From: Eledone cirrhosa
Lineage: Eukaryota
Direction of reading: 5' to 3'
DNA length: 64,000 bases
Assembly (NCBI GenBank): GCA_964016885.1
Contig: OZ024740.1
Span: 295,492,001 to 295,556,000 of the forward strand
Shown: positions 1 to 44,640 of the stretch, piece by piece
How the letters are laid out: each line of letters begins with the position of its first letter
How positions within the stretch are numbered: position 1 is the stretch's first letter
Translations under genes and position numbers: made by a program
Notes under the pieces: generated by a model
Seen by the model: only the letters and a program-made list of their open reading frames with translations
What the model was told of the DNA's origin: nothing
Database searches by the model: none

Positions 1-80
1 ATAAAAAAGGATCCATCAAATAAAAAATGGATCACCTAAATAAAAAGGATCCATTAAATAAAAAATGGATCACCTAATGT

Positions 81-295
81 GAACAACAAATCAGTATAGA
101 ATAGGGTATCAGGAGAGTATATGGTAGAACAGGGATATAAATCATTTTTTATTTGACGGATCCATTTTTATTTAGGTGATGGATCACCTAAATAAAAGGA
201 TCCATTAAATAAAAAATGGATCACCTAATTTGTACAACAAATCAGTATAGAATAGGGTATCAGGAGAGTATATGGTAGAACAGGGATATAAATCA
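81..295 (+). repeat. ~63 bp non-satellite spacer (acaacaaatcagtatagaatagggtatcaggagagtatatggtagaacagggatataaatca), two copies here; others at ~1793, 1942, 4311, 7148, 17641, 17790, 20197, 27377, 27526, 29933, 32672
   Basis: Same sequence at A-arm to T-arm switches lacking an island. Matches island positions ~14023-14085. Confidence 0.95.
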
Positions 296-3200
296 TTTTT
301 TATTTGATGGATCCATTTTTATTTAGGTGATCCATTTTATATTTGATGGATCCATTTTTTTATTTAGGTGATCCATTATTTATTTAGGTGATCCATTTTT
401 TATTTGATGGATCCTTTTTTTATTTAGGTGATACATTTTTTATTTGATGGATCCATTTTTTATTTGATGGATCCTTTTTTATTTAGGTGATCCATTTTTT
501 ATTTGATGGATCCATTTTTTATTTGATGGATCCTTTTTTATTTAGGTGATCCATTATTTATTTGATGGATCCTTTTATATTTAGGTGATCCATTTTTTTA
601 TTTGCTGGATCCATTTTTTATTTGATGGATCCTTTTTTATTTAGGTGATCCATTTTTTATTTGATGGATCCTTTTTTATTTAGGTGATCCATTTTTTATT
701 TGATGGATCCATTTTTTATTTGATGGATCCTTTTTTATTTAGGTGATCCATTATTTATTTGATGGATTCTTTTTTATTTAGGTGATCCATTTTTTATATG
801 ATGGATCCACTTTTTATTTGATGGATCCTTTTTTATTTAGGTGATCCATTTTTTATTTGATGGATCCTTTTTTATTTAGGTGATCCATTTTTTATTTGAT
901 GGATCCTTTTTATTTAGGTGATCCATTTTATATTTGATGGATCCTTTTTTATTTAGGTGATCCATTTTTTATTTGGTGGATCCATTTTTTATTTGATGGA
1001 TCCTTTTTTATTTAGGTGATCCATTTTTTATTTGATGGATCCATTTTTTATTTGATGGATCCTTTTTTATTTAGTTGATCCATTTTTTATTTGATGGATC
1101 CTTTTTTATTTAGGTGATCCATTTTTTATTTGATGGATCCTTTTTTATTTAGGTGATCCATTTTTTATTTGATGTATCCATTTTTTATTTGATGGATCCA
1201 TTTTTTATTTGATGGATCCATTTTTATTTAGGTGAACCATTTTTTATTTGATGGATCCTTCTTTATTTAGGTGATCCATTTTTATTTGATGGATCCATTT
1301 TTTATCTAGCTGATCCATTTTTTATTTGATGGATCCTTTGTATTAAGGTGAACCATTTTTTATTTGATGGATCCTTTTTTTATTTAGGTGATCCATTTTT
1401 TATTTGATGGATCCATTTTTTATTTGATGGATCCTTTTTTATTTAGGCGATCAAATAAAAAATGGATCACGTAAATAAAAAAGGATCCATGAAATAAAAA
1501 ATGGATCCATCAAATAAAAAATGGATCACCTAAATAAAAAAGGATCCATCAAATAAAATATGGATACATAAAATAAAAAATGGATTACCTAAATAAAAAA
1601 TGATCCATCAAATAAAATATGGATCACCTAAATAAAAAAATGGATCCATCAAATAAAAAATGGATCCATCAAATAAAAAATGGATCCATCAAATAAAAAA
1701 TGGATCACCTAAATAAAAAAGGATCCATCAAATAAAAAATGGATCACCTAAATAAAAAGGATCCATTAAATAAAAAATGGATCACCTAATGTGAACAACA
1801 AATCAGTATAGAATAGGGTATCAGGAGAGTATATGGTAGAACAGGGATATAAATCATTTTTTATTTGACGGATCCATTTTTATTTAGGTGATGGATCACC
1901 TAAATAAAAGGATCCATTAAATAAAAAATGGATCACCTAATTTGTACAACAAATCAGTATAGAATAGGGTATCAGGAGAGTATATGGTAGAACAGGGATA
2001 TAAATCATTTTTTATTTGATGGATCCATTTTTATTTAGGTGATCCATTTTATATTTGATGGATCCATTTTTTTATTTAGGTGATCCATTATTTATTTAGG
2101 TGATCCATTTTTTATTTGATGGATCCTTTTTTTATTTAGGTGATACATTTTTTATTTGATGGATCCATTTTTTATTTGATGGATCCTTTTTTATTTAGGT
2201 GATCCATTTTTTATTTGATGGATCCATTTTTTATTTGATGGATCCTTTTTTATTTAGGTGATCCATTATTTATTTGATGGATCCTTTTATATTTAGGTGA
2301 TCCATTTTTTTATTTGCTGGATCCATTTTTTATTTGATGGATCCTTTTTTATTTAGGTGATCCATTTTTTATTTGATGGATCCTTTTTTATTTAGGTGAT
2401 CCATTTTTTATTTGATGGATCCATTTTTTATTTGATGGATCCTTTTTTATTTAGGTGATCCATTATTTATTTGATGGATTCTTTTTTATTTAGGTGATCC
2501 ATTTTTTATATGATGGATCCACTTTTTATTTGATGGATCCTTTTTTATTTAGGTGATCCATTTTTTATTTGATGGATCCTTTTTTATTTAGGTGATCCAT
2601 TTTTTATTTGATGGATCCTTTTTATTTAGGTGATCCATTTTATATTTGATGGATCCTTTTTTATTTAGGTGATCCATTTTTTATTTGGTGGATCCATTTT
2701 TTATTTGATGGATCCTTTTTTATTTAGGTGATCCATTTTTTATTTGATGGATCCATTTTTTATTTGATGGATCCTTTTTTATTTAGTTGATCCATTTTTT
2801 ATTTGATGGATCCTTTTTTATTTAGGTGATCCATTTTTTATTTGATGGATCCATTTTTTTATTTGATGGATCCTTTTTTATTTAGGTGATCCATTTTTTA
2901 TTTGATGGATCCATTTTATATTTAGTTGATCCATTTTTTATTTGATGGATCCATTTTTATTTAGGTGATCCATTTTTTATTTGATGGATCCTTTTTATTT
3001 AGGTGATCCATTTTTTATTTGATGGATCCTTTTTTATTTAGGTGATCCATTTTTTATTTAATGGATCCATTTTTTATTTGATGAATCCTTTTTTATTTAG
3101 GTGATCCATTTTTTATTTGATGGATCCTTTTGATTTATGTGATCCATTTTATATTTGATGGATCCATTTTTTATTTAGGTGATCCATTTTTTATTTAGGT

Positions 3201-6200
3201 GATCCATTTTTTTATTTGATGGATCCTTTTTTATTTAGGTGATCCATTTTTTATTTGATGGATCCATTTTTTATTTGATGGATCCTTTTTTATTTAGGTG
3301 ATCCATTTTTTATACGATGGATCCATTTTTTATTTAGGTGATCCAATTTTTATTTGATGGATCCATTTTTTATTTAGGTGATCCATTTTTTATTTGATGG
3401 ATCCATTTTTATTTAGGTGATCCATTCTTTATTTGATGGATCCTTTTTTATTTAGGTGATCCATTTTTTATTTGATGGATCCATTTTTTATTTGATGGAT
3501 CCTTTTTTATTTAGGTGATCCATTTTTTATTTGATGGATCCATTTTTTATTTGATGGATCCTTTTTTATTTAGGTGATCCATTTTTTATTTGATGGATCC
3601 TTTTTTATTTAGGTGATCCATTTTTTATTTGATGGATCCATTTTTTATTTGATGGATCTTTTTTTATTTAGGTGATCCATTTTTTATTTGATGGATCCTT
3701 TTTTATTTAGGTGATCCATTTTTTATTTGATGGATCCATTTTATTTAGGTGATCCATTTTTTATTTGATGGATCCTTTTTTATTTAGGTGATCCATTTTT
3801 TATTTGATGGATCCATTTTTTTTATTTGATCTATCCTTTTTTATTTAGGCGATCAAATAAAAAATGGATCCATCAAATAAAAAATGGATCACCTAAATAA
3901 AAAAGGATCCATCAAATAAAATATGGATCCATCAAATAAAAAATGGATTACCTAAATAAAAAAGGATCCATCAAATAAAAAATGGATCCATCAAATAAAA
4001 AATGGATCACCTAAATAAAAATGAATCCATCAAATAAAAAATGTTTCATCTAAATAAAAAATTGGATCCATCAAATAAAAAATGGATCACCTAAATAAAA
4101 AAGGATCCTTCCAATAAAAAATGGATCGCCTAAATAAGAAATGGATCCATCAAATAAAAAATGGATCACCTAAATAAAAATGGATCACCTAAATAAAAAG
4201 TATCCATCAAATAAAAAATGGATCACTTAAATAAAAAAGGATCCATCAAATAAAAAATGGATCACCTAAATAAAAAGGATCCATCAAATAAAAAATGGAT
4301 CACCTAATTTGAACAACAAATCAGTATAGAATAGGGTATCAGGAGAGTATATGGTAGAACAGGGATATAAATCATTTTTTATTTGATGGATCCATTTTTA
4401 TTTAGGTGATCCATTTTATATTTGATGGATCCATTTTTTTATTTAGGTGATCCATTCTTTATTTAGGTGATCCATTTTTTATTTGATGGATCCTTTTTTT
4501 ATTTAGGTGATACATTTTTTATTTGATGGATCCATTTTTTATATGATGGATCCTTTTTTATTTAGGTGATCCATTTTTTATTTGATGGATCCATTTTTTA
4601 TTTGATGGATCCTTTTTTATTTAGGTGATCCATTTTTTATTTGATGGATCCTTTTATATTTAGGTGATCCATTTTTTATTTGCTGGATCCATTTTTTATT
4701 TGATGGATCCTTTTTTATTTAGGTGATCCATTTTTTATTTGATGGATTCTTTTTTATTTAGGCGATGCATTTTTTATTTGATGGGTCCATTTTATTTAGG
4801 TGATCCATTTTTTATTTGATGGATCCATTTTTATTTAGGTGATCCATTTTATATTTGATGGATCCATTTTTTTATTTAGGTGATCCATTTTTTATTTAGG
4901 TGATCCATTTTTTATTTGATGGATCCTTTTTTTTATTTAGGTGATACATTTTTTATTTGATGGATCCATTTTTTATTTGATGGATCCTTTTTTATTTAGG
5001 TGATCCATTTTTTATTTGATGGATCCATTTTTTATTTGATGGATCCTTTTTTATTTAGGTGATCCATTTTTTATTTGATAGATCCTTTTATATTTAGGTG
5101 ATCCATTTTTTATTTGCTGGACCCATTTTTTATTTGATGGATCCTTTTTTATTTAGGTGATCCATTTTTTATTTGATGGATCCTTTTTTATTTAGGCGAT
5201 CCATTTTTTATTTGATGGATCCATTTTTTATTTGATGGATCCTTTTTTATTTAGGTGATCCATTTTTTATTTGATGGATCCTTTTTATTTAGGTGATCCA
5301 TTTTTTATTTGATGGATTCTTTTTTATTTAGGTGATCCATTTTTTATATGATGGATCCACTTTTTATTTGATGGATCCTTTTTTATTTAGGTGATCCATT
5401 TTTTATTTGATGGATCCTTTTTTATTTAGGTGATCCATTTTTTATTTGATGGATCCTTTTTATTTAGGTGATCCATTTTATATTTGATGGATCCTTTTTT
5501 ATTTAGGTGATCCATTTTTTATTTGGTGGATCCATTTTTTATTTGATGGATCCTTTTTTATTTAGGTGATCCATTTTTTATTTGATGGATCCATTTTTTA
5601 TTTGATGGATCCTTTTTTATTTAGTTGATCCATTTTTTATTTGATGGATCCTTTTTTATTTAGGTGATCCATTTTTTATTTGATGGATCCATTTTTTTAT
5701 TTGATGGATCCTTTTTTATTTAGGTGATCCATTTTTTATTTGATGGATCCTTTTTTATTTAGGTGATCCATTTTTTATTTGATGGATCCATTTTTTATTT
5801 AGTTGATCCATTTTTTATTTGATGGATCCATTTTTATTTAGGTGATCCATTTTTTATTTGATGGATCCTTTTTATTTAGGTGATCCATTTTTTATTTGAT
5901 GGATCCTTTTTTATTTAGGTGATCCATTTTTTATTTAATGGATCCATTTTTTATTTGATGAATCCTTTTTTATTTAGGTGATCCATTTTTTATTTGATGG
6001 ATCCTTTTGATTTATGTGATCCATTTTATATTTGATGGATCCATTTTTTATTTAGGTGATCCATTTTTTATTTAGGTGATCCATTTTTTTATTTGATGGA
6101 TCCTTTTTTATTTAGGTGATCCATTTTTTATTTGATGGATCCATTTTTTATTTGATGGATCCTTTTTTATTTAGGTGATCCAATTTTTATTTGATGGATC

Positions 6201-9200: not shown

Positions 9201-9573
9201 AAATATGGATCCATCAAATAAAAAATGGATTACCTAAATAAAAAAGGATCCATCAAATAAAAAATGGATCCATCAAATAAAAAATAGATCACCTAAATAA
9301 AAAAGGATCCATCAAATAAAATATGGATCCATCAAATAAAAAATGGATTACCTAAATAAAAAAGGATCCATCAAATAAAAAATGGATCCATCAAATAAAT
9401 AATGGATCACCTAAATAAAAAAGGATCCATCAAATAAAAAATGGATCACCTAAATAAAAAAAGGATCCATCAAATAAAAAATGGATCACCTACTTTAGAT
9501 AAATAAAAGATACGTCCAAGATCAACAAAAGCAGGTTGTAAAAATTCCGGTCTGCCAGTACCACTAGTCTGTA

Positions 9574-9763
9574 GCGGTGAATTGGCAGTATGAGTAGAGG
9601 GTCGTACGCCATGCTTTCCAGCATAGTTACGTTCCTTTACGTTCTGAGTTCAAATCCCGTTGAGTTTAACTTTGCCTTTCATCCTTATGGGGTCGATAAA
9701 ATAAAGTACCAGTAATGCACTGGGTAATTGCTGGCCTTGTGCCAAAAGTAGAAACAATTATTA
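9574..9763 (+). mobile_element. tRNA-derived SINE (~190 bp), island copy
   Basis: A-box-like tggcagtatgagtag, B-box gagttcaaatcc, central ctttgcctttcatccttatggggtcgataaaataaagtaccag (recalled as Meta-domain-like), tail gctggccttgtgccaaaagtagaaacaatta. Many dispersed copies in the window. Confidence 0.88.
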
Positions 9764-10313
9764 GTAAGATCGAGAGGAATAAGACAAGTTTAAAGCAGTG
9801 TGTTTATAATATAGACTCATGTCCGAGTCATAACATGAAGGGCTTACTCTGCCACACTCTCCAGCTCGTCACAGAAAAGGCGACCATAATATATACAAGA
9901 ATGGCTCTCATACATTCTTAGTGGGAATCAAATGAAAGTAGACATCCGTAAGCAATGGCACTAACTAGTGAAATGAGTTACTCTGAGACCACATAAAAAG
10001 AAGAAATAAATAAAAAAACATGATGTTTTATGGAAAAGTAATAAAATGTTCTTCCCAAAAAATAATAAAACTCCTAGAATTCTATAACTACAGAAATATA
10101 TGTATATACAAAGATAATAAATGATATATTACAACAGGATCACAAGAACACAGCAACAATAATAATTTTCAGAATGAATATACAAAAAATAATGTAAGTT
10201 AAAACAATATGTGACATATTGTTTTACCTTACATTATTTTTTGTTTTAATTATATAATATATAGTATCGTTAATTATAATATGTAATAATAATAATATAA
10301 TTTTCTATTTCAG

Positions 10314-10496
10314 AGCTCAGCTTTGGAAGAGAGGCTGCTTGCAAGTGTATGGACATATGATCGTGTGCATTCTTGCAAGAGCATGGAGGATGTGCGACAT
10401 GACTTCATTGCAAGATTCGGTAAACCAGCTCCTATGAAGAGGACGATACTGCGATGGGAACATAAACTATTTCTCATTACTTTTGGTAGGGGGTGA
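10314..10496 (+). pseudogene. DUF4817-like transposase relic, truncated-island copy
   Basis: Same frame and near-identical sequence to 13819-14001. Confidence 0.68.
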
Positions 10497-13078
10497 CAAG
10501 ACTTTCGGACCACCTTGTACAACAAATCAGTATAGAATAGGGTATCAGGAGAGTATATGGCAGAACAGGGATATAAATCATTTTTTATTTGATGGATCCA
10601 TTTTTTATTTGATGGATCCTTTTTATTTAGGTGATCCATTTTTTATTTAGGTGATCCATTTTTTATTTGATGGACCCATTTTTTATTTGATGGATCCTTT
10701 TTATTTAGGTGATCCATTTTTTATTTAGGTGATCCACTTTTTATTTGATGGATCCTTTTTTATTTAGGTGATCCATTTTTTATTTGATGGATCCATTTTT
10801 TATTTGATGGATCCTTTTTTTTATTTAGGTGATCCATCTTTTATTTGATGGATCCATTTTTTTATTTGATGGCTCCTTTTTAATTTAGGTGATCCATTTT
10901 TTATATGATGGATCCTTTTTTATTTAGTTGATCCATTTTTTATTTGATGGATCCCTTTTTTATTTGATGGATCCTTTTTTATTTAGGTGATCCATTTTAT
11001 ATTTGATGGATCCATTTTTTATTTGATGGATCCTTTTTTATTTAGGTGATCCATTTTTTATTTGATGGATCCATTTTTTATTTGATGGATGCTTTTTCAT
11101 TTAGGTGATCCATTTTTTATTTGATGGATCCATTTTTTATTTGATGGATCCTTTTTCATTTAGGTGATCCATTTTTTATTTGATGGATCCTTTTTTATTT
11201 AGGTGATCCATTTTTTATTTAATGGATTCATTTTTTATTTCATGGATTTTTTTTATTTAGGTGATCAATTTTTATTTGATGTATCCTTTTTTATTTAGGT
11301 GATCCATTTTTTATTTGATGGATCCATTTTTTTATTTAGGGTATCCATTTTTTATTTGATGGATCCATTTTTATTAAGGTGATCCATTTTTTATTTGATG
11401 GATCCTTTTTTATTTAGGTGATCCATTTTTTATTTGATGGATCCATTTTTTATTTGATGCATCCTTTTTTATTTAGGTGATCCATTTTTTATTTGATGGA
11501 TCCATTTTTTATTTGATGGATCCTTTTTAATTTAGGTGATCCATTTTTTATTTGATGGATCAATTTTTTATTTGATGGATCCTTTTTTATTTAGGTGATC
11601 CATTTTTTATTTGATGGATCCAAATTTTTATTTGATGGATCCTTTTTTATTTAGGTGATCCATTTTTTATTTGATGGATCCATTTTTTATTTGATGGATC
11701 ATTTTTCATTTAGGTGATCCATTTTTTATTTGATGGATCCTTTTTTATTTAGGTGATCCATTTTTTATTTAATGGATCCATTTTTTATTTGATGGATCCT
11801 TTTTTATTTAGGTGATCCATTTTTATTTGATGCATCCTTTTTTATTTAGGTGATCCATTTTTTATTTGATGGATCCTTTTTTTTTATTTAGGTGATCCAT
11901 TTTTTATTTGATGGATCCATTTTTATTTAGGTGATCCATTTTTTATTTGATGGATCCTTTTTTATTTAGGTGATCCATTTTTTATTTGATGGATCCATTT
12001 TTTATTTGATGGATCCTTTTTCATTTAGGTGATCCATTTTTTATTTGATCGATCCTTTTTTATTTAGGTGATCCATTTTTTATTTAATGGATCCATTTTT
12101 TATTTGATGGATGCTTTTTTATTTAGGTGATCCATTTTTATTTGATGCATCCTTTTTTATTTAGGTGATCCATTTTTTATTTGATGGATCCATTTTTTTA
12201 TTTAGGTGATCCATTTTTTATTTGATGGATCCATTTTTATTTAGGTGATCCATTTTTTATTTGATGGATCCTTTTTTATTTAGGTGATCCATTTTTTATT
12301 TGATGGATCCATTTTTTATTTGATGGATCCTTTTTTATTTAGGTGATCCATTTTTTATTTGATGGATCCATTTTTTATTTGATGGATCCTTTTTTATTTA
12401 GGTGATCCATTTTTTATTTGATGGATCCATTTTTTATTTGATGGATCCTTTTTCATTTAGGTGATCCATTTTTTATTTGATGGATCCTTTTTTATTTAGG
12501 TGATCCATTTTTTATTTAATGGATCCATTTTTTATTTGATGGATCCTTTTTTATTTAGGTGATCCATTTTTATTTGATGCATCCTTTTTTATTTAGGTGA
12601 TCCATTTTTTATTTGATGGATCCATTTTTTTATTTAGGTGATCCATTTTTTATTTAATGGATCCATTTTTATTTAGGTGATCCATTTTTTATTTGATGGA
12701 TCCTTTTTTATTTAGGTGATCCATTTTTTATTTGATGGATCCATTTTTTATTTGATGGATCCTTTTTTATTTAGGCGATCAAATAAAAAATGGATCCATC
12801 AAATAAAAAATGGATCACCTAAATAAAAAAGGATCCATCAAATAAAATATGGATCCATCAAATAAAAAATGGATTACCTAAATAAAAAAGGATCCATCAA
12901 ATAAAAAATGGATCACCTAAATAAAAAAGGATCCATCAAATAAAAAATGGATCACCTAAATAAAAAAGGATCCATCAAATAAAAAATGGATCACCTACTT
13001 TAGATAAATAAAAGATACGTCCAAGATCAACAAAAGCAGGTTGTGAAAATTCCGGTCTGCCAGTACCACTAATCTGTA

Positions 13079-13268
13079 GCGGTGAATTGGTAGTATGAGT
13101 AGAGGGTCGTACGCCATGCTTTCCAGCATAGTTACGTTCCTTTACGTTCTGAGTTCAAATCCCGTTGAGATTAACTTTGCCTTTCATCCTTATGGGGTCG
13201 ATAAAATAAAGTACCAGTAATGCACTGGGTAATTGCTGGCCTTGTGCCAAAAGTAGAAACAATTATTA
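13079..13268 (+). mobile_element. Same SINE, island copy
   Basis: Near-identical to 9574-9763. Confidence 0.88.
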
Positions 13269-13818
13269 GTAAGATCGAGAGGAATAAGACAAGTTTAAAG
13301 CAGTGTGTTTATAATATAGACTCATGTCCGAGTCATAACATGAAGGGCTTACTCTGCCACACTCTCCAGCTCGTCACAGAAAAGGCGACCATAATATATA
13401 CAAGAATGTCTCTCATACATTCTTAGTGGGAATCAAATGAAAGTAGACATCCGTAAGCAATGGCGCTAACTAGTGAAATGAGTTACTCTGAGACCACATA
13501 AAAAGAAGAAATAAATAAAAAAACATGATGTTTTATGGAAAAGTAATAAAATGTTCTTCACAAAAAATAATAAAACTCCTAGAATTCTATAACTACAGAA
13601 ATATATGTATATACAAAGATAATAAATGATATATTACAACAGGATCACAAGAACACAGCAACAATAATAATTTTCAGAATGAATATACAAAAAATAATGT
13701 AAGTTAAAACAATATGTGACATATTGTTTTAACTTACATTATTTTTTGTTTTAATTATATAATATATAGTATCGTTAATTATAATATGTAATAATAATAA
13801 TATAATTTTCTATTTCAG

Positions 13819-14001
13819 AGCTCAGCTTTGGAAGAGAGGCTGCTTGCAAGTGTATGGACATATGATCGTGTGCATTCTAGCAAGAGCATGGAGGATGTGC
13901 GACATGACTTCATTGCAAGATTCGGTAAACCAGCTCCTATGAAGAGGACGATACTGCGATGGGAACATAAACTATTTCTCATTACTTTTGGTAGGGGGTG
14001 A
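13819..14001 (+). pseudogene. Relic of a DUF4817-type helix-turn-helix N-terminus of a Tc1/mariner-superfamily transposase
   Basis: Manual translation: SSALEERLLASVWTYDRVHSSKSMEDVRHDFIARFGKPAPMKRTILRWEHKLFLITFGRG*. It fits the recalled pattern EERLxxxVW...VRxxFxxRFxKxxP...TIxxWExKLFxxG. Absent from the ORF track. No DDD/E catalytic domain follows. Confidence 0.7.
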
Positions 14002-17000
14002 CAAGACTTTCGGACCACCTTGTACAACAAATCAGTATAGAATAGGGTATCAGGAGAGTATATGGTAGAACAGGGATATAAATCACGACTCTTGACTTCA
14101 CCACGAAATATTGAAGTTGCTAGGGTGCGGTTCCGATACATATTTTAATTACTGATTATTGCATAATTCATTACTTCAATGAATCTGACACTTTACTAAA
14201 TTACTATTGATTGATTCTATATGTAATAAAATAAATCTGGGAAATTTGGATTATTTTGTAATTTCGCTTTAATATCTTGATCATTTGTTAGAATAACACG
14301 TACCAACAATATACAATATATCAGTTTGGAATGCATACACATACAACCACCAAAGCAAATGTACAGTAATAAGAAAGATTAATCAGAAAGAAAAATACAC
14401 ACAAAAAAAGAAAGACATGTACACTCCCACAATTATACACTACAACAGCGAATGATGATGTTTTCTTCTAAAAATAAGGATGGGAGCATGACTGTACGAG
14501 TATCACCTCATACTTTAGTAAGACGAGCAGCTAACAATGACAAAAACTTTGTTATCAGCTGTCCAGCTTACCTGAATGTCTCCAATGCAACGTGCGGAAA
14601 GAGTAATTCACCAACTACAGTATTTCAACAACTTGCTCGGCTATAGATGCAGAATTCCCCCACATCCATATAAATTATAACACAAACTTCCTAAAGAAGT
14701 ATTATATTTTAGTTCTAATATTTCAGTGCAAAATACAACAATGCCATCGCACAAACAATGAGATTCGTGGAGCTACAAAGCCAATTTCTTATATATCGGA
14801 TCCTTGGCAAGGTAGTACAAGAGGAGGGTATTACCAGTTTAAAAGAAGCTCTACAGGAACGGAAGTGCAAACAGCTGAACCTGTCCGAGATCGCCAAGTA
14901 CCTATGCACATTAGACATGTGGGCATATTTCGAACAGCTGCTATCCGTGTGGTTTTTTCGACTTTGTATTGTTCTCAGCATTTATTATTTGAGTGATCCA
15001 TTTTTTGGTTGATTGATTCAATTTTTATTTGATGGATTGATTTTTTATTTGGGTGACCCATTTTGTTTTAGATGGATGCATTTGAGTGCCGGATCAAAAA
15101 CAATAAGTGTCAGCGCCGGATTAAAAAACATAAGGATAATGCTGGATTATAACTTGTTAGTGCGGATTAAACACACAAATGATCGGTACCAGATTAAAAA
15201 TAGTAAGGTTAAGTGCCGGATTAAAATTAATAGGGCTAAGTGGCGGATTAAAAATAAGGGTCAATGCCGGATTTAAAATAATAAGCATCAGTGCCGGATT
15301 TAAAATAATAATGGTCAATGCTGGATTTAAACAAATAAGGATCAGTGCCAAATAAAAGAGTGTCAATGCCGGACAAAAGTGCCAGTGTCGGATTAAAAAC
15401 ACTATGGATTAGTGCTAGGTTAAAATGTGTGGTGATCCATTTTTTATTTGATGGATCCATTTTTTATTTGATGGATACTTTTTTATTTAGGTGATCCATT
15501 TTTAATATGATGGATCCATTTTTTATTTGATGGATCCTTTTTTATTTAGGTGATCCATTTTTTATTTGATGGATCCTTTTTTATTTAGGTGATCCATTTT
15601 TTATTTGATGGATCCTTTTTTATTTAGGTGATCCATTTTTTATTTGATGGATCCATTTTTTATTTGATGGATCCTTTTTTATTTAGGTGATCCATTTTTT
15701 ATTTGATGGATCCTTTTGATTTATGTGATCCATTTTATATTTGATGGATCCATTTTTTTTATTTAGGTGATCCATTTTTTATTTAGGTGATCCATTTTTT
15801 ATTTGATGGATCCTTTTTTATTTAGGTGATCCATTTTTTATTTGATGGATCCATTTTTTATTTGATGGATCCTTTTTTATTTAGGTGATCCATTTTTTAT
15901 TTGATGGATCCATTTTTACTTGATGGATCCTTTTTTATTTAGGTGATCCATTTTTTATTTGATGGATCCTTTTTATATTTAGGTGATCCATTTTTTTATT
16001 TGATGGATCCATTTTTTATTTGATGGATCTTTTTTATTTAGGTGATCCATTTTTTATTTGATGGATCCTTTTTTATTTAGGTGATCCAATTTTTATTTGA
16101 TGGATCCATTTTTTATTTAGATGATCCATTTTTTATTTGATGGATCCATTTTTATTTAGGTGATCCATTTTATATTTGAAGGATCCATTTTTTATTTAGG
16201 TGATCCATTTTTTATTTAGGTGATCCATTTTTTATTTGATGGATCCTTTTTTATTTAGGTGATCCATTTTTTATTTGATGGATCCATTTTTTATTTGATG
16301 GATCCTTTTTTATTTAGGTGATCCATATTTTATTTGTTGGATCCATTTTTTATTTGATGGATCCTTTTTTATTTAGGTGATCCATTTTTTTATTTGATGG
16401 ATCCTTTTTATTTAGGTGATCCATTTTTTATTTGACGGATCCTTTTTATTTAGGTCATCCATTTTTTTTATGGATCCATTTTTTATTTGATGGATCCTTT
16501 TTTTATTTAGGTGATCCATTTTTTATTTGATGAATACTTTTTTATTTAGGTGATACATTTTTGATTTGATGGATCCATTTTTTATTTAGGTGATCCATTT
16601 TTATTTAGGTGATCCATATTATATTTGATGGATCCATTTTTTTTATTTAGGTGATCCATTTTTTATTTAGGTGATCTATTTTTTATTTGATGGATCCTTT
16701 TTTATTTAGGTGATCCATTTTTTATTTGTTGGATCCATTTTTTATTTGATGAATCCTTATTTATTTAGGTGATCCATATTTTATTTGTTGGATCCATTTT
16801 TTATTTGATGGATCCTTTTTTAATTAGGTTATCCATTTTTTTATTTGATGGATCCTTTTTATTTAGGTGAACCATTTTTTATTTGACGGATATTTTTTAT
16901 TTAGGTGATCCATTTTTTATTTGATGGATCCTTTTTTATTTAGGTGATCCATTTTTTATTTGATGGATCCATTTTTTATTTGATGGATCCTTTTTATTTA

Positions 17001-22814: not shown

Positions 22815-23004
22815 GCGGTGAATTGGTAGTATGAGTAGAGGGTCGTACGCCATGCTTTCCAGCATAGTTACGTTCCTTTACGTTCTGAGTTCAAATCCCG
22901 TTGAGATTAACTTTGCCTTTCATCCTTATGGGGTCGATAAAATAAAGTACCAGTAATGCACTGGGTAATTGCTGGCCTTGTGCCAAAAGTAGAAACAATT
23001 ATTA
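22815..23004 (+). mobile_element. Same SINE, island copy
   Basis: Matches 13079-13268. Confidence 0.88.
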
Positions 23005-23554
23005 GTAAGATCGAGAGGAATAAGACAAGTTTAAAGCAGTGTGTTTATAATATAGACTCATGTCCGAGTCATAACATGAAGGGCTTACTCTGCCACACTC
23101 TCCAGCTCGTCACAGAAAAGGCGACCATAATATATACAAGAATGTCTCTCATACATTCTTAGTGGGAATCAAATGAAAGTAGACATCCGTAAGCAATGGC
23201 GCTAACTAGTGAAATGAGTTACTCTGAGACCACATAAAAAGAAGAAATAAATAAAAAAACATGATGTTTTATGGAAAAGTAATAAAATGTTCTTCACAAA
23301 AAATAATAAAACTCCTAGAATTCTATAACTACAGAAATATATGTATATACAAAGATAATAAATGATATATTACAACAGGATCACAAGAACACAGCAACAA
23401 TAATAATTTTCAGAATGAATATACAAAAAATAATGTAAGTTAAAACAATATGTGACATATTGTTTTAACTTACATTATTTTTTGTTTTAATTATATAATA
23501 TATAGTATCGTTAATTATAATATGTAATAATAATAATATAATTTTCTATTTCAG

Positions 23555-23737
23555 AGCTCAGCTTTGGAAGAGAGGCTGCTTGCAAGTGTATGGACATATG
23601 ATCGTGTGCATTCTAGCAAGAGCATGGAGGATGTGCGACATGACTTCATTGCAAGATTCGGTAAACCAGCTCCTATGAAGAGGACGATACTGCGATGGGA
23701 ACATAAACTATTTCTCATTACTTTTGGTAGGGGGTGA
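23555..23737 (+). pseudogene. DUF4817-like transposase relic, island copy
   Basis: Matches 13819-14001. Confidence 0.68.
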
Positions 23738-29700: not shown

Positions 29701-32700
29701 AAAATGGATCACCTAAATAAAAAAGGATCCTTCCAATAAAAAATGGATCGCCTAAATAAGAAATGGATCCATCAAATAAAAAATGGATCACCTAAATAAA
29801 AATGGATCACCTAAATAAAAAGTATCCATCAAATAAAAAATGGATCACTTAAATAAAAAAGGATCCATCAAATAAAAAATGGATCACCTAAATAAAAAGG
29901 ATCCATCAAATAAAAAATGGATCACCTAATTTGAACAACAAATCAGTATAGAATAGGGTATCAGGAGAGTATATGGTAGAACAGGGATATAAATCATTTT
30001 TTATTTGATGGATCCATTTTTATTTAGGTGATCCATTTTATATTTGATGGATCCATTTTTTTATTTAGGTGATCCATTCTTTATTTAGGTGATCCATTTT
30101 TTATTTGATGGATCCTTTTTTTATTTAGGTGATACATTTTTTATTTGATGGATCCATTTTTTATATGATGGATCCTTTTTTATTTAGGTGATCCATTTTT
30201 TATTTGATGGATCCATTTTTTATTTGATGGATCCTTTTTTATTTAGGTGATCCATTTTTTATTTGATGGATCCTTTTATATTTAGGTGATCCATTTTTTA
30301 TTTGCTGGATCCATTTTTTATTTGATGGATCCTTTTTTATTTAGGTGATCCATTTTTTATTTGATGGATTCTTTTTTATTTAGGCGATGCATTTTTTATT
30401 TGATGGGTCCATTTTATTTAGGTGATCCATTTTTTATTTGATGGATCCATTTTTATTTAGGTGATCCATTTTATATTTGATGGATCCATTTTTTTATTTA
30501 GGTGATCCATTTTTTATTTAGGTGATCCATTTTTTATTTGATGGATCCTTTTTTTTATTTAGGTGATACATTTTTTATTTGATGGATCCATTTTTTATTT
30601 GATGGATCCTTTTTTATTTAGGTGATCCATTTTTTATTTGATGGATCCATTTTTTATTTGATGGATCCTTTTTTATTTAGGTGATCCATTTTTTATTTGA
30701 TAGATCCTTTTATATTTAGGTGATCCATTTTTTATTTGCTGGACCCATTTTTTATTTGATGGATCCTTTTTTATTTAGGTGATCCATTTTTTATTTGATG
30801 GATCCTTTTTTATTTAGGCGATCCATTTTTTATTTGATGGATCCATTTTTTATTTGATGGATCCTTTTTTATTTAGGTGATCCATTTTTTATTTGATGGA
30901 TCCTTTTTATTTAGGTGATCCATTTTTTATTTGATGGATTCTTTTTTATTTAGGTGATCCATTTTTTATATGATGGATCCACTTTTTATTTGATGGATCC
31001 TTTTTTATTTAGGTGATCCATTTTTTATTTGATGGATCCTTTTTTATTTAGGTGATCCATTTTTTATTTGATGGATCCTTTTTATTTAGGTGATCCATTT
31101 TATATTTGATGGATCCTTTTTTATTTAGGTGATCCATTTTTTATTTGGTGGATCCATTTTTTATTTGATGGATCCTTTTTTATTTAGGTGATCCATTTTT
31201 TATTTGATGGATCCATTTTTTATTTGATGGATCCTTTTTTATTTAGTTGATCCATTTTTTATTTGATGGATCCTTTTTTATTTAGGTGATCCATTTTTTA
31301 TTTGATGGATCCATTTTTTTATTTGATGGATCCTTTTTTATTTAGGTGATCCATTTTTTATTTGATGGATCCTTTTTTATTTAGGTGATCCATTTTTTAT
31401 TTGATGGATCCATTTTTTATTTAGTTGATCCATTTTTTATTTGATGGATCCATTTTTATTTAGGTGATCCATTTTTTATTTGATGGATCCTTTTTATTTA
31501 GGTGATCCATTTTTTATTTGATGGATCCTTTTTTATTTAGGTGATCCATTTTTTATTTAATGGATCCATTTTTTATTTGATGAATCCTTTTTTATTTAGG
31601 TGATCCATTTTTTATTTGATGGATCCTTTTGATTTATGTGATCCATTTTATATTTGATGGATCCATTTTTTATTTAGGTGATCCATTTTTTATTTAGGTG
31701 ATCCATTTTTTTATTTGATGGATCCTTTTTTATTTAGGTGATCCATTTTTTATTTGATGGATCCATTTTTTATTTGATGGATCCTTTTTTATTTAGGTGA
31801 TCCAATTTTTATTTGATGGATCCATTTTTTATTTAGGTGATCCATTTTTTATTTGATGGATCCATTTTTATTTAGGTGATCCATTCTTTATTTGATGGAT
31901 CCTTTTTTATTTAGGTGATCCATTTTTTATTTGATGGATCCATTTTTTATTTGATGGATCCTTTTTTATTTAGGTGATCCATTTTTTATTTGATGGATCC
32001 ATTTTTTATTTGATGGATCCTTTTTTATTTAGGTGATCCATTTTTTATTTGATGGATCCTTTTTTATTTAGGTGATCCATTTTTTATTTGATGGATCCAT
32101 TTTTTATTTGATGGATCTTTTTTTATTTAGGTGATCCATTTTTTATTTGATGGATCCTTTTTTATTTAGGTGATCCATTTTTTATTTGATGGATCCATTT
32201 TATTTAGGTGATCCATTTTTTATTTGATGGATCCTTTTTTATTTAGGTGATCCATTTTTTATTTGATGGATCCATTTTTTTTATTTGATCTATCCTTTTT
32301 TATTTAGGCGATCAAATAAAAAATGGATCCATCAAATAAAAAATGGATCACCTAAATAAAAAAGGATCCATCAAATAAAATATGGATCCATCAAATAAAA
32401 AATGGATTACCTAAATAAAAAAGGATCCATCAAATAAAAAATGGATCCATCAAATAAAAAATGGATCACCTAAATAAAAATGAATCCATCAAATAAAAAA
32501 TGTTTCATCTAAATAAAAAATTGGATCCATCAAATAAAAAATGGATCACCTAAATAAAAAGTATCCATCAAATAAAAAATGGATCACTTAAATAAAAAAG
32601 GATCCATCAAATAAAAAATGGATCACCTAAATAAAAAGGATCCATCAAATAAAAAATGGATCACCTAATTTGAACAACAAATCAGTATAGAATAGGGTAT

Positions 32701-35475: not shown

Positions 35476-35665
35476 GCGGTGAATTGGCAGTATCAGTAGA
35501 GGGTCGTACGCCATGCTTTCCAGCAAAGTTACGTTCCTTTACGTTCTGAGTTCAAATCCCGTTGAGATTAACTTTGCCTTTCATCCTTATGGGGTCGATA
35601 AAATAAAGTACCAGTAATGCACTGGGTAATTGCTGGCCTTGTGCCAAAAGTAGAAACAATTATTA
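35476..35665 (+). mobile_element. Same SINE, island copy
   Basis: Near-identical to the other island copies. Confidence 0.88.
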
Positions 35666-36214: not shown

Positions 36215-36397
36215 AGCTCAGCTTTGGAAGAGAGGCTGCTTGCAAGTGTATGGACATATGATCGTGTGCATTCTAGCAAGAGCATGGAGGATGTGCGACA
36301 TGACTTCATTGCAAGATTCGGTAAACCAGCTCCTATGAAGAGGACGATACTGCGATGGGAGCATAAACTATTTCTCATTACTTTTGGTGGGGGGTGA
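36215..36397 (+). pseudogene. DUF4817-like transposase relic, island copy
   Basis: Near-identical to 13819-14001. Confidence 0.68.
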
Positions 36398-39300
36398 CAA
36401 GACTTTCGGACCACCTTGTACAACAAATCAGTATAGAATAGGGTATCAGGAGAGTATATGGTAGAACAGGGATATAAATCACGACTCTTGACTTCACCAC
36501 GAAATATTGAAGTTGCTAGGGTGCGGTTCCGATACTTATTTTAATTACTGATTATTGCATAATTCATTACTTCAATGAATCTGACACTTTTCTAAATTAC
36601 TATTGATTGATTCTATATGTAATAAAATAAATCTGGGAAATTTTGATTATTTTGTAATTTCGCTTTAATATCTTGATCATTTGTTAGAATAACACGTACC
36701 AACAATATACAATATATCAGTTTGGAATGCATACACATACAACCACCAAAGCAAATGTACAGTAATAAGAAAGATTAATCAGAAAGAAAAATGCACACAA
36801 AAAAAGAAAGACATGTACACTCCCACAATTATACACTACAACAGCGAATGATGATGTTTTCTTCTAAAAATAAGGATGGGAGCATGACTGTACGAGTATC
36901 ACCTCATACTTTAGTAAGACGAGCAGCTAACAATGACAAAAACTTTGTTATCAGCTGTTCGGCTTACCTGAATGTCTCCAATGCAACGTGCGGAAAGAGT
37001 AATTCACCAACTACAGTATTTCAACAACTTGCTCGGCTATAGATGCAGAATTCCCCCACATCCATATAAATTATAACACAAACTTCCTAAAGAAGTATTA
37101 TATTTTAGTTCTAATATTTCAGTGCAAAATACGACAATGCCATTCGCACAAACAATGAGATTCGTGGAGCTACAAAGCCAATTTCTTATATATCGGATCC
37201 CTGGCAAGGTAGTACAAGAGGAGGGTATTACCAGTTTAAAAGAAGCTCTACAGGAACGGAAGTGCAAACAGCTGAACTTGTCCGAGATCGCCAATTACCT
37301 ATGCACATTAGACATGTGGGCATATTTCGAACAGCTGCTTTCCGTGTGGTTTTTTCGACTTTGTATTGTTCTCAGCATTTATTATTTGAGTGATCCATTT
37401 TTTGGTTGATTGATTCAATTTTTATTTGATGGATTGATTTTTTATTTGGGTGACCCATTTTTTTTTAGATGGATCCATTTGAGTGCCGGATCAAAAACAA
37501 TAAGTGTCAGCGCCGGATTAAAAAACATAAGGATAATGCCGGATTATAACTTGTTAGTGCGGATTAAACACACAAATGATCGGTGCCAGATTAAAAATAG
37601 TAAGGTTTAGTGCCGGATTAAAATTAATAGGGCTAAGTGGCGGATTAAAAATAAGGGTCAATGCCGGATTTAAAATAATAAGTATCAGTGCCGGATTTAA
37701 AATAATAAGGGTCAGTGCTGGATTTAAACAAATAAGGATCAGTGCCAAATAAAAGAGTGTCAATGCCGGACAAAAGTGCCAGTGCCGGATTAAAAACACT
37801 ATGGATTAGTGCTAGGTTAAAATGTGTGGTGATCCATTTTTTATTTGATGGATCCATTTTTTATTTGATGGATCCTTTTTTATTTAGGTGATCCATTTTT
37901 TATTTGATGGATCCATTTTTTATTTGATGGATCCTTTTTTATTTAGGTGATCCATTTTTTATTTGATGGATCCATTTTTTATTTCTGGATCCTTTTTTAT
38001 TTAGGTGATCCATTTTTTATTTGATGGATCCTTTTTTATTTAGGTGATCCATTTTTTATTTGATGGATCCTTTTTATTTAGGTGATTCATTTTTTTATTT
38101 GATGGATCCTCTTTTATTTAGGTGATCCATTTTTTATTTGATGGATCCATTTTTTATTTGATGGATCCTTTTTTATTTAGGTGATCCATTTTTTATTTGA
38201 TGGATCCTTTTGATTTATGGGATCCATTTTATATTTGATGGATCCTTTTTTTATTTAGGTGATCCATTTTTTATTTAGGTGATCCATTTTTTATTTGATG
38301 GATCCTTTTTTATTTAGGTGATCCATTTTTTATTTGATGGATCCATTTTTTATTTGATGGATCATTTGTTATTTAGGTGATCCATTTTTTATATGATGGA
38401 TCCTTTTTTATTTCGGTGATCCAATTTTTATTTGATGGATCCATTTTTTATTTAGGTGATCCATTTTTTATTTGATGGATCCATTTTTATTTAAGTGATC
38501 CATTTTTTATTTGATGGATTCTTTTTTATTTAGGTGATCCATTTTTTATTTGATGGATCCATTTTTTATTTAGGTGATCCATTTTTTATTTGATGGATCC
38601 ATTTTTATTAAGGTGATCCATTTATTATTTGATGGATCCATTTTTTATTTGATGGATCCTTTTTTATTTAGCTGATCCATTTTTTATTTGATGGATCCAT
38701 TTTTTATTTGATGGATCCTTTTTATTTAGGTGATCCATTTTTTATTTGATGGATCCATTTTTTATTTGATGGATCCTTTTTTATTTAGGTGATCCATTTT
38801 TTATTTGATGGATCCATTTTTTATTTGATGGATCCTTTTTTTTATTTAGGTGATACATTTTTTATTTGATGGATCCATTTTTTATTTGTTGGATCCTTTT
38901 TTATTTAGGTGATCCATTTTTTATTTGATGGATCCTTTTTATTTAGGTGATCCATTTTTTATTTGATGGATCCATTTTTTATTTGATGGATCCATTTTTT
39001 ATTTGATGGATCCTTTTTATTTAGGTGATCCATTTTTTATTTGATGGATCCTTTTTTATTTAGGTGATCCATTTTTTATTTGATGGATCCTTTTTTATTT
39101 ACGTGTTCCATTTTTTATTTGATGGATCCATTTTTATTTGATGGATCCTTTTTTATTTAGGTGATCCATTTTTTATTTGATGAATCCATTTTTTATTTGT
39201 TGGATCATTTTTTATTTAGGTGATCCATTTTTTATTTGATGTAACCATTTTTATTTAGGTGATCCATTTTTTATTTGATGGATCCATTTTTTATTTGATG

Positions 39301-42187
39301 GATCCATTTTTATTTGATGGATCCTTTTTTATTTAGGTGATCCATTTTTTGTTTGATGGATCCATTTTTTATTTGATGGATCCTTTTTTATTTAGGTGAT
39401 CCATTTTTTATTTGATGGATCCTTTTTTATTTAGGTGATCCATTTTTTATTTGATGGATCCATTTTTTATTTCATGGATCCTTTTTATTTAGGTGATCCA
39501 TTTTTTATTTGATGGATCCATTTTTTATTTGATGGATCCTTTTTTTATTTAGGTGATACATTTTTTATTTGCTGGATCCATTTTTTATTTCATGGATCCA
39601 TTTTTATTTAGGTGATCGATTTTTTATTTGATGGATCCATTTTTTATTTGTTGGATCCTTTTTTATTTAGGTGATCCATTTTTTATTTGATGGATCAATT
39701 TTTTATTTGATGGATCCTTTTTATTTAGGTGATCCATTTTTTATTTGATGGATCCATTTTTTATTTGATGGATCCATTTTTTATTTGATGGATCCATTTT
39801 TTATTTGATGGATCCTTTTTATTTAGGTGATCCATTTTTTATTTGATCGATCCTTTTTTATTTAGGTGATCCATTTTTTATTTGATGGATCCTTTTTTAT
39901 TTAGGTGTTCCATTTTTTATTTGATGGATCTATTTTTATTTGATGGATCCTTTTTTATTTAGGTGATCCATTTTTTATTTGATGAATCCATTTTTTATTT
40001 GTTGGATCATTTTTTATTTAGGTGATCCATTTTTTATTTGATGTAACCATTTTTATTTAGGTGATCCATTTTTTATTTGATGGATCCATTTTTTATTTGA
40101 TGGATCCATTTTTATTTGATGGATCCTTTTTTATTTAGGTGATCCATTTTTTGTTTGATGGATCCATTTTTATTTGATGGATCCTTTTTTATTTAGGTGA
40201 TTCATTTTTTATTTGATGGATCCTTTTTTATTTAGGTGATCCATTTTTTATTTGATGGATCCATTTTTTATTTGATGGATCCTTTTTTATTTAGGTGATC
40301 CATTTTTTATTTGACGGATCCTTTTTTATTTAGGTGATCCATTTTTTATTTGATGGATCCTTTTTTATTTAGGTGATCCATTTTTTATTTGATGGATCCA
40401 TTTTTTATTTGATGGATCCTTTTTTATTTAGGTGATCCATTTTTTATTTGATGAATCCATTTTTTATTTGATGGATCCTTTTTTATTTAGGTGATCCATT
40501 TTTTATTTGATGGATCCATTTTTTATTTGATGGATCCATTTTTTATTTGATGGATCCTTTTTTATTTAGGTGATCCATTTTTTATTTGATGGATCCATTT
40601 TTTATTTGATGGATCCTTTTTTATTTAGGTGATCCATTTTTCATTTGATGGATCCTTTTTTATTTAGGTGATTCATTTTTTATTTGATGGATCCATTTTT
40701 TATTTGATGGATCCTTTTTTATTTAGGTGATCCATTTTTTATTTGATGGATCCTTTTTATTTAGGTGATCCATTTTTTATTTGATGGATCCTTTTTTATT
40801 TAGGTGATCCATTTTTTATTTGATGGATCCATTTTTTATTTGATGGATCCTTTTTTATTTAGGTGATCCATTTTTTATTTGATGGATCCATTTTTTATTT
40901 GATGGATCCTTTTTTATTTGATGGATCCTTTTTTATTTAGGTGATCCATTTTTCATTTGATGGATCCTTTTTTATTTAGGTGATCCATTTTTTATTTGAT
41001 GGATCCTTTTTATTTAGGTGATCCATTTTTTATTTGATGGATCCATTTTTTATTTGATGGATCCTTTTTTATTTAGGTGATCCATTTTTTATTTGATGGA
41101 TTCTTTTTTATTTAGGTGATCCATTTTTTATTTGATGGATCCATTTTTTTTATTTAGGTGATCCATTTTTAATTTGATGGATCCATTTTTATTTAGGTGA
41201 TCCATTTTTTTATTTGATGGATCCTTTTTTATTTAGGTGATCCATTTTTATTTCATGGATCCATTTTTTATTTGATGGATCCTTTTTATTTAGGTGATCC
41301 ATTTTTTATTTGATGGATCCATTTTTTATTTGATGGATCCTTTTTTTATTTAGGTGATCCATTTTTTATTTGATGGATCCATTTTTTATTTGATGGATCC
41401 TTTTTTATTTAGGCGATCAAATCAAAAATGGATCACGTAAATAAAAAAGGATCCATCAAATAAAAAATGGATCCATCAAATAAAAAATGGATCACCTAAA
41501 TAAAAAAGGATCCATCAAATAAAAAATTGATCCAGCAAATAAAAAATGGATTACCTAAATAGAAAAGGATCCATCAAATAAAAAATGCATCCATCAAATA
41601 AAAAATGAATCACCTAAATAAAAATGGATCCATCAAATAAAAAATGGATCACCTAAATAAAAAAAGATCCATCAAATAAAAAATGGATCCATCAAATAAA
41701 GAATGGATCACCTAAATAAAAATGGATCCATCAAATAAAAAATGGATCACCTAAATAAAAATGGATCACCTAAATAAAAAGGATCCATCAAATAAAAAAT
41801 GGATCACCTAAATAAAAAAGGATCCATCAAATAAAAAATGGATCACCTAAATAAAAAGGATCCATTAAATAAAAAATGGATCACCTAATTAAAAATGGAT
41901 CCATCAAATAAAAAATGGATCACCTAAATAACAAAATGGATCCATCAAATAAAAAATGGATCACCTAAATAAAAAAATGGATCCATCAAATAAAAAATGG
42001 ATCACCTAAATAAAAACGGATCCATCAAATAAAAAATGGATCCATCAAATAAAAAATGGATCACCTAAATAAAAAAGGATCCATCAAATAAAAAATGGAG
42101 CACCTACTTTAGATAAATAAAAAATACGTCCAAGATCAACAAAAGCAGGTTGTGAAAATTCTGGTCTGCCAGTATCACTAGTCTGTA

Positions 42188-42377
42188 GCGGTGAATTGGC
42201 AGTATGAGTAGAGGGTCGTACGCCATGCTTTCCAGCATAGTTACGTTCCTTCACGTTCTGAGTTCAAATCCCGTTGAGATTAACTTTGCCTTTCATCCTT
42301 ATGGGGTCGATAAAATAAAGTACCAGTAATGCACTGGGCAATTGCTGGCCTTGTGCCAAAAGTAGAAACAATTATTA
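42188..42377 (+). mobile_element. Same SINE, island copy
   Basis: Near-identical to the other island copies. Confidence 0.88.
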
Positions 42378-42926
42378 GTAAGATCGAGAGGAATAAGATA
42401 AGTTTAAAGCAGTGTGTTTATAATATAAACTCATGTCCGAGTCATAACATGAAGGGCTTACTCTGCACACTCTCCAGCTCGTCACAGAAAAGGCGACCAT
42501 AATATATACAAGAATGGCTCTCATACATTCTTAGTGGGAATCAAATGAAAGTAGACATCCGTAAGCAATGGCGCTAACTAGTGAAATGAGTTACTCTGAG
42601 ACCACATAAAAAGAAGAAATAAATAAAAAAACATGATGTTTTATGGAAAAGTAATAAAATGTTCTTCACAAAAAATAATAAAACTCCTAGAATTCTATAA
42701 CTACAGAAATATATGTATATACAAAGATAATAAATGATATATTACAACAGGATCACAAGAACACAGCAACAATAATAATTTTCAGAATGAATATACAAAA
42801 AATAATGTAAGTTAAAACAATATGTGACATATTGTTTTAACTTACATTATTTTTTGTTTTAATTTTATAATATATAGTATTGTTAATTATAATATGTAAT
42901 AATAATAATATAATTTTCTATTTCAG

Positions 42927-43109
42927 AGCTCAGCTTTGGAAGAGAGGCTGCTTGCAAGTGTATGGACATATGATCGTGTGCATTCTAGCAAGAACATGGA
43001 GGATGTGCGACATGACTTCATTGCAAGATTCGGTAAACCAGCTCCTATGAAGAGGACGATACTGCGATGGGAACATAAACTATTTCTCATTACTTTTGGT
43101 AGGGGGTGA
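42927..43109 (+). pseudogene. DUF4817-like transposase relic, terminal island copy
   Basis: Near-identical to 13819-14001. Confidence 0.68.
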
Positions 43110-44640
43110 CAAGACTTTCGGACCACCTTGTACAACAAATCAGTATAGAATAGGGTATCAGGAGAGTATATGGTAGAACAGGGATATAAATCACGACTCT
43201 TGACTTCACCACGAAATATTGAAGTTGCTAGGGTGCGGTTCCGATACATATTTTAATTACTGATTATTGCATAATTCATTACTTCAATTAATCTGACACT
43301 TTACTAAATTACTATTGATTGATTCTATATGTAATAAAATAAATCTGGGAAATTTTGATTATTTTGTAATTTTGCTTTAATATCTTGATCATTTGTTAGA
43401 ATAACACGTACCAACAATATACAATATATCAGTTTGGAATGCATACACATACAACCACCAAAGCAAATGTACAGTAATAAGAAAGATTAATCAGAAAGAA
43501 AAATACACACAAAAAAAAGAAAGACATGTACACTCCCACAATTATACACTACAACAGCGAATGATGATGTTTTCTTCTAAAAATATGGATGGGAGCCTGA
43601 CTGTACGAGTATCACCTCATACTTTAGTAAGACGAGCAGCTAACAATGACAAAAACTTTGTTATCAGCTGTCCAGCTTACCTGAATGTCTCCAATGCAAC
43701 GTGCAGAAAGAGTAATTCACCAACTACAGTATTTTAACAACTTGCTCGGCTATAGATGCAGAATTCCCCACATCCATATAAATCATAACACAAACTTCCT
43801 AAAGAAGTATTATATTTTAGTTCTAATATTTCAGTGCAAAATACGACAATGCCATTCGCACAAACAATGAGATTCGTGGAGCTACAAAGCCAATTTCTTA
43901 TATATCGGATCCTTGGCAAGGTAGTACAAGAGGAGGGTATTACCAGTTTAAAAGAAGCTCTACAGTAACGGAAGTGCAAACAGCTGAACCTGTCCGAGAT
44001 CGCCAAGTACCTATGCACATTAGACATGTGGGCATATTTCGAACAGCTGCTATCCGTGTGGTTTTTTCGACTTTGTATTGTTCTCAGCATTTATTATTTG
44101 AGTGATCCATTTTTTGGTTGATTGATTCAATTTTTATTTGATGGATTGATTTTTTATTTGGGTGACCCATTTTTTTTTAGATGGATCCATTTGAGTGCCG
44201 GATCAAAAACAATAAGTGTCAGGGCCAGATTAAAAAACATAAGGATAATGCCGGATTATAACTTGTTAGTGCGGATTAAACACACAAATGATCGGTGCCA
44301 GATTAAAAATAGTAAGGTTAAGTGCCGGATTAAAATTAATAGGGCTAAGTGGCGGATTAAAAATAAGGGTCAATGCCGGATTTAAAATAATAAGTATCAG
44401 TGCCGGATTTGAAATAATAAGGGTCAGTGCTGGATTTAAACAAATAAGGATCAGTGCCAAATAAAAGAGTGTCAATGCCGGACAAAAGTGCCAGTGCCGG
44501 ATTAAAAACACTATGGATTAGTGCTAGGTTAAAATGTGTTATTGCCGGATTAAAAATAATAAGTGTCAGTGCCAGATGAAAAACACTATGGATTAGTGCC
44601 AGATTAAAGATAGTAAATTTAAGTGCCGGATTAAAAACAA

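Follow-up and report, generated by a model that had tools for sequence, protein, structure and literature searches.

Structure of the array

The first 44.5 kb of the 64-kb stretch of Eledone cirrhosa DNA analysed here (the window) consist of an 18-21-bp satellite in two orientations, arranged as a complex tandem array (1..44539, plus strand) that is open to the left and runs past that end of the window. The natural phase of the repeated unit is T-arm, seam, A-arm and core, and in this T-arm-first phase units start at positions 293, 2005, 4372, 7209, 10581, 15431, 17853, 20258, 25167, 27589, 29994, 32733 and 37828. Parsing gave 1654 satellite monomers belonging to 161 variants, two of which are dominant (a 20-mer with 592 copies and a 19-mer with 290). 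Four 12-mer words of the satellite were searched for beyond position 44200 and none was found there. The window, which comes from an animal genome, is also rich in microsatellites.

The two kinds of arm are opposite in orientation and differ in length, the A-arms measuring 216-685 bp and the T-arms 1.16-3.59 kb, in agreement with the initial annotation of the locus, which had described short A-strand and long T-strand arms. The longest T-arm (37828..41419, plus strand) is built of two main 18-21-bp monomer types, about 2% from consensus, and is followed by the A-arm of the last unit (41420..42104, minus strand), an inverted satellite block whose right edge decays into the core. The absence of a long arm from the last unit, as annotated initially, proved to be an effect of phase, since the T-arm-first unit 37828-44539 is complete.

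The arms meet at seams marked by the 13-nt motif TTAGGCGATCAAA, which is present in 13 exact copies on the plus strand and in none on the minus strand, and is identical at all 13 seams. It was located at 1448, 3850, 6687, 9132, 12776, 17296, 19736, 22512, 27032, 29472, 32309, 34853 and 41414, exactly the coordinates at which unit boundaries had been placed. The seam of the last unit (41409..41421, plus strand) is a spacerless tail-to-tail inversion of the satellite, joined inside a shared (G)ATC word. The observed arrangement is confirmed and far beyond chance. In the T-arm-first phase, the inverted arms meet at a spacerless seam and are not the ends of one element. As single-stranded DNA, the seam region has a predicted fold of -490 kcal/mol over 1201 nt, a value calculated without a shuffle control.

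Within positions 1-47000, diagnostic words change orientation 35 times: at the 13 seams, at 4 hairpins and at 18 core or spacer crossings. The hairpins are those of the double-spacer units, where 151 bp around the spacer are duplicated in tandem (1739..2043, plus strand; four copies, at 27, 1739, 17587 and 27323), which makes a hairpin with a 2-nt loop. The 2-nt hairpin had been noticed before, and 15-bp arms around GG are indeed present. The accompanying claim, that orientation otherwise flips only at cores and unit seams, holds for all 35 flips, but in full cores the flip lies inside the core: the change from A to T takes place at a decayed 105-bp satellite block (44088-44192) located ahead of a 27-bp minisatellite.

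A-arms have private monomer variants in common, and such variants (e.g. n, H, P, Q, R, S and T) occur in none of 1387 T-arm monomers. Because these private variants are common to the A-arms, the latter go back to a single ancestral block. An origin of the A-arm by fold-back copying from the T-arm next to it was also considered and rejected, as the mirror identity about the seam (0.895-0.944 in 13 units) is within the background, for which means of 0.884-0.928 were obtained.

Content of the core

The full core of the last unit (42105..44539, plus strand) is 2.43 kb long and is the native template copy; the other full cores lie at 12998-15430, 22734-25166 and 35393-37827 (plus strand). Pairwise divergence between full cores is 1.3-1.4%, except that units U6 and U9 are identical (0 differences); U6, U13 and U14 are at roughly equal distances from one another.

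Close to the left end of the native core lies a SINE-like repeat (42187..42380, plus strand) with A-box-like and B-box-like words, which were read by eye against the consensus of these boxes. Six further copies, at 84-89%, occur elsewhere in the window, and the repeat has very high depth in public sequencing runs. It probably resembles octopus SINEs. The core further contains a 63-bp near-perfect palindrome (42795..42857) and an internally deleted Tc1/mariner-like remnant (42909..43132, plus strand), in which an N-terminal transposase fragment precedes a single terminal repeat that ends in TA; its left end was not found in the window. The remnant matches protein P0001 at 85%. Full-length relatives of P0001 carry PF13358, and P0001 itself matches SETMAR with an E value of 0.00056. 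A relative of the transposase fragment is also found within an Octopus vulgaris protein (P0010).

At the end of the remnant begins a spacer of 64-66 bp (43128..43193, plus strand), which is the sole core remnant in short units and is present in 18 copies in the window. The right part of the core includes the decayed T-oriented block of the 20-bp satellite (44088..44192, plus strand; 91 of 105 positions identical to the best monomer string) and the start of the 27-bp minisatellite with interspersed SINE-like copies (44193..46330, plus strand). The first 347 bp of this minisatellite belong to the amplified unit, and the remainder is native flank in the same register.

No recognisable gene was found in the low-copy DNA of the core. 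Pfam searches of ten frames gave no match above the cut-off, ARAGORN detected no tRNA genes, and Rfam searches of positions 41400-64000 returned 147 sub-threshold matches, nearly all of them to microsatellites and none informative. A 110-aa frame at 37077-37406 was rejected as a gene: it is interrupted by a stop in the U14 copy, and none of 72 longer candidates scored, the latter being weak evidence. The core is ordinary flanking DNA consisting of a decayed satellite edge, a SINE-like repeat, a palindrome, a dead Tc1/mariner end and low-copy sequence.

Junctions and the native right end

Three junctions, designated J1, J2 and J3, are each identical across their copies. At J1 (37827..37828, plus strand) the 27-bp repeat passes into the T-arm without microhomology, and the same junction is found at 15430 and 25166; all three other full cores thus leave the minisatellite at an identical base to enter a T-arm. 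In the last unit the corresponding position, 44539, is followed by native continuation. Anchors of the 27-bp repeat lie at 44544, 44571, 44598 and 44625 (spacings of 27, 27 and 27), and the 100 bases after 44539 align to the inner 27-mers of the unit with a score of 51, against a maximum of 20 in 500 shuffles. Since the register is unbroken past 44539 and the three other cores switch at this point, the right end can be regarded as the native template and J1 as a duplication junction.

The shorter cores, of 1085 and 64 bp, are nested one within the other and share single breakpoints. The half core of 1085 bp (9493..10580, plus strand) ends at J2 and is 0.9% from U6, and an example of a short core (4308..4374, plus strand) is bounded by J3, where the A-arm passes into the spacer, and by J2. 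The latter junction, which has a 2-nt overlap, is common to 14 of the 18 spacer copies and J3 to 13; because every J3 copy also has J2, J2 would be the earlier event. At the J3 site, reading by eye shows a match of 8 out of 9 letters between the A monomer and the end of the mariner remnant.

Higher-order duplication and mosaic units

A higher-order duplicate with a period of 9736 bp occupies 12738..32247 (plus strand), with 2 differences in 9774 bp. Blocks are offset by 9736 bp and by 15.9 kb, and several units are mosaics of others. U8 is identical to U3 over 2775 bp, beyond which it changes over to the U5/U6 block; U1 is identical to U2 over 1140 bp, and its next 280 bp correspond to the end of U9. 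The switch points are in homologous register inside arms. Five unit types alternate along the array, and the longest exact repeat occurs twice. Such in-register switches are more readily explained by unequal exchange than by a concatemer; that higher-order repeats can result from unequal exchange is expected from theory, as set out in the accessible part of PMC5932611.

Read depth of the core and its flank

In order to examine the assembly, contigs from four of six listed public runs were compared to positions 42090-48720. Three of the runs derive from one sample and contain 43-46% of the sampled words; this may be the sample of the assembly itself, which makes the comparison a test of the assembly and not of the population. 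The RAD-seq run X4 was too thin over low-copy parts. No RNA run was among those listed, which carries no information on expression. Contigs of the flank have 0-1 differences and a summed depth of about 15 (four contigs, 12-17). The contig of the left core has a depth of 218 (about 14.7 times the flank) and that of the right core 70 (about 4.7 times), while the window holds five and four copies, respectively. These depths are not equal to copy numbers. A diverged paralogue may contribute to the right-core value, and 43185-43273 were counted from the paralogue contig only. This paralogue of part of the core shows 23 differences over 695 bp, and a segment of about 139 bp stands in place of 42804-43149.

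Read depth establishes that amplification of the core is real; the seams themselves lie outside the read comparison. The data suggest about ten more copies of the left core outside the window, and point to a total core copy number of tens rather than thousands.

Origin of the array

The array most probably consists of at least 13 tandem copies of one inversion point together with neighbouring DNA, formed by duplication at a satellite edge, deletions and out-of-register recombination. The T-oriented array, seen to meet a short inverted block tail to tail, would have come into this arrangement at the outset, and the block would have decayed into the flank. A duplication with breaks in the T-array and at 44539, within the 27-bp minisatellite, may then have produced the first unit, as judged from the junction. 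To the observed nesting of the cores would correspond a J2 deletion of the right 1.35 kb, then a J3 deletion of the left 1.0 kb, and the 151-bp duplication afterwards. Each deletion joins core to arm and so shortens the loop between the inverted arms, which would fit hairpin-stimulated deletion. The mosaics seen among units may have arisen when misaligned exchange between T-arms spread the variants into higher-order blocks. Two options had been put forward in the initial annotation, and the one invoking captured flanking DNA and unequal exchange gains support from the 27-bp repeat continuing in register past 44539, the nested core deletions and the mosaic arms; rolling-circle amplification, proposed along with it, finds less favour in view of the heterogeneous, mosaic make-up of the units. 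Edge duplication does not account for how the first seam arose.

The other option was a Foldback-like element. One trait of such elements, tandem subrepeats in the arms, is present here, in the form of 18-21-bp monomers in both orientations. Tetris-type Foldback elements are described, in the available sections of PMC4079207, as having arms that match each other and carry flanking and inner domains, and as making target-site duplications of 8-10 bp. In contrast, the arms of the present units are not mirror copies about the core, as their core-mirror identity (0.893-0.921 in 12 units) lies within the background of random T-arm segments (means of 0.884-0.928), and no shared inner domain was detected, since the inner flanks did not align above 300 shuffles (p = 0.69 and 0.87). 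The outer end of the A-arm directly adjoins satellite, leaving no non-satellite outer terminus. No direct repeat of 4-12 bp was found around the start of the A-arm and the end of the decayed block in two of two tests, although a satellite left flank could erase an old duplication; a third test recovered only the repeated seam. The sole coding remnant is the Tc1/mariner fragment, and the ten frames gave no Pfam match above the cut-off that would indicate a Mutator-type or P-type transposase. On these features, compared at the sequence level, the locus would not be classified as a Foldback member.

A related possibility is that an old non-autonomous Foldback-type transposon, comprising the A-arm, the middle and a short decayed T-arm, was located at the satellite edge, gave rise to the 20-bp repeat and later underwent tandem amplification. 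Two outward-facing satellite blocks around a 2-kb core do have the look of a foldback relic, the paralogue of part of the core is present at about three times flank depth, and the arms of Tribolium Rehavkus and Drosophila Tetris seed satellites according to the accessible text of PMC12581902 and PMC4079207. However, the results given above on the inner domain, the core-mirror identity, direct repeats around the candidate ends and the outer terminus all speak against it, and the core is SINE and mariner debris continuous with the flank, so that we regard this origin as improbable. Slightly less credit is given to excision of a circle containing the seam and core, followed by rolling-circle replication and reinsertion. 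It would account for the seam and J1 being the same in every copy, satellite eccDNA is reported for Tribolium in the available part of PMC12581902, and the near-equal divergence of U6, U13 and U14 is compatible with a circle having made the first few copies. A concatemer, however, should give runs of identical units, whereas here one unit type gives way to another, the longest exact repeat has two copies and switches are in register. An assembly artefact, either of the whole array or of the 9.7-kb duplicate, for instance through fold-back reads or falsely unrolled repeats, is the least credible explanation and a very improbable one. Blocks differing at 2 positions in 9774 bp and the strong hairpin potential of the seam (-490 kcal/mol over 1201 nt) would suit it, and neither the seams nor J1-J3 were seen in reads, the tables of joints and loose ends being dominated by SINEs. 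Against it stand the scattered private substitutions in the cores (1.3-1.4%), the A-arms, which unlike fold-back chimeras are not mirror copies of adjacent sequence, and the run contigs, in which the depth of the core is several-fold to 15-fold that of the flank, at least matching the 4 and 5 copies of the window. Duplication of the satellite edge remains the preferred explanation.

Comparison with known systems

The array has the traits of a complex satellite or tandem segmental duplication with higher-order repeats, namely head-to-tail multi-kb units, J1 in three of four full cores, native continuation in the fourth, and variants amplified together in blocks whose switch points are in register. 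The closest known structure appears to be the macro-dyad cassette of Tribolium, whose arrays, in which inversion points recur and transition zones are fixed, are documented in that genus only, as far as the accessible sections of PMC13081366 and PMC12581902 extend. As in the macro-dyad and TmSat2 cassettes described there, multi-kb inverted subarrays share a near-identical repeated inversion point and fixed transition zones, with variable monomer numbers. The designation of the locus as the best candidate for an undescribed system was thus an overstatement, since satellite subarrays in inverted orientation, with conserved inversion sites that recur, had already been described in Tribolium. The differences are of scale and content: the same portions of these papers report thousands of sites spanning megabases on every chromosome, in a putatively pericentromeric position and partnered by a second satellite, whereas here one locus is seen, with 13 seams, a 20-bp monomer, SINE/mariner cargo and the native template still attached. 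The arms are also more asymmetric here than in the available description from Tribolium.

With Tetris and Rehavkus, as presented in the accessible parts of PMC4079207 and PMC12581902, the locus shares inverted tandem-repeat arms around non-coding DNA and a link to satellite growth. Unlike those elements, it has no flanking or inner terminal domain, its arms are not mutual copies, no target-site duplication was found, its middle is continuous with the flank, and in the one window the array is tandem and not dispersed. Internal deletions and junctions that have a single origin and are then amplified together into higher-order repeats are likewise described for the Drosophila R1 array in the available text of PMC5932611; the founder there was a double transposon insertion, and here a duplication of the satellite flank containing an inversion. 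Junction fragments of mollusc satellites, in the sections of PMC5139131 consulted, similarly combine anonymous DNA, transposon remnants, a second satellite and decayed edge monomers, though those junctions are seen singly while here the junction itself is amplified.

A literature search, which most subscription papers lay outside, returned no description of this satellite or of any octopus or cephalopod satellite. A 38-nt dimer of the satellite had no matches in metagenome and viral contigs, as expected for an animal repeat.

Significance

The locus is real and is explained by ordinary processes; it reveals no new mobile element or function. A function is likely not needed, and the array would reflect neutral growth of the heterochromatin type in which cargo is being lost and a satellite of alternating orientation is left. 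In Tribolium, conserved inversion sites were considered in 2026 to be possibly functional or to reflect array spread (PMC13081366, accessible sections). We tentatively propose, as a view that we hold with less than even confidence, that the present locus captures in full how a macro-dyad satellite comes into being outside Tribolium: a chance inversion point would have been caught in an edge duplication, the inverted arms would drive a stepwise shrinking of the cargo from 2.4 kb through 1.1 kb to 64 bp, and the alternating-orientation satellite left over would display 'conserved' inversion sites that need no function. The locus offers a neutral route, in readable steps, by which a single seam becomes 'conserved' through being copied with its unit, and provides, in a cephalopod, a compact example of a satellite growing over the DNA next to it that is accessible to PCR.

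Repeats in the flank

The SINE-like repeat of the core, the 2.43-kb non-satellite part of the array unit, recurs in the flank as two side-by-side pairs of copies, 56708-57105 and 45432-45824, and aligning one pair with the other gives 87% over 403 bp. A separate dispersed repeat with AG-rich inner tracts is present in three copies (54190-54640, 55240-55830 and 56390-56580), and raised depth in the public sequencing runs marks additional medium-copy repeats at 46308-46751, 46974-47417 and 48306-48527. Further right, a (CAC)n array fills 3.2 kb (58652-61859) and is extremely strand-skewed; (TATG)n follows at 62020-62683. A hairpin of ~76 bp, centred on a TA run, occupies 52126-52205; an Rfam search of 41400-64000 gave it only sub-threshold matches to miRNA families.

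Structure and relatives of the core

An open frame of 110 amino acids (37077-37406) is open in three full cores and carries a stop codon in the native copy, the core that runs on into the flank. No Pfam family or longer homologue was found for it, the latter being weak evidence (none of 72 longer candidates scored).

A near-perfect 63-bp palindrome (42795-42857) adjoins the mariner remnant, an internally deleted Tc1/mariner-like piece, on its truncated left side; the palindrome may have arisen as that remnant inserted. Contigs from the three runs of one sample (X1 record 2, X2 record 10, X3 record 18) contain a diverged core paralogue matching 42553-43844 at ~3x flank depth, a comparison with flank contigs rather than a copy number. 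In these contigs ~139 bp stand in place of 42804-43149, so that the mariner remnant and the greater part of the palindrome seem to be absent from the paralogue.
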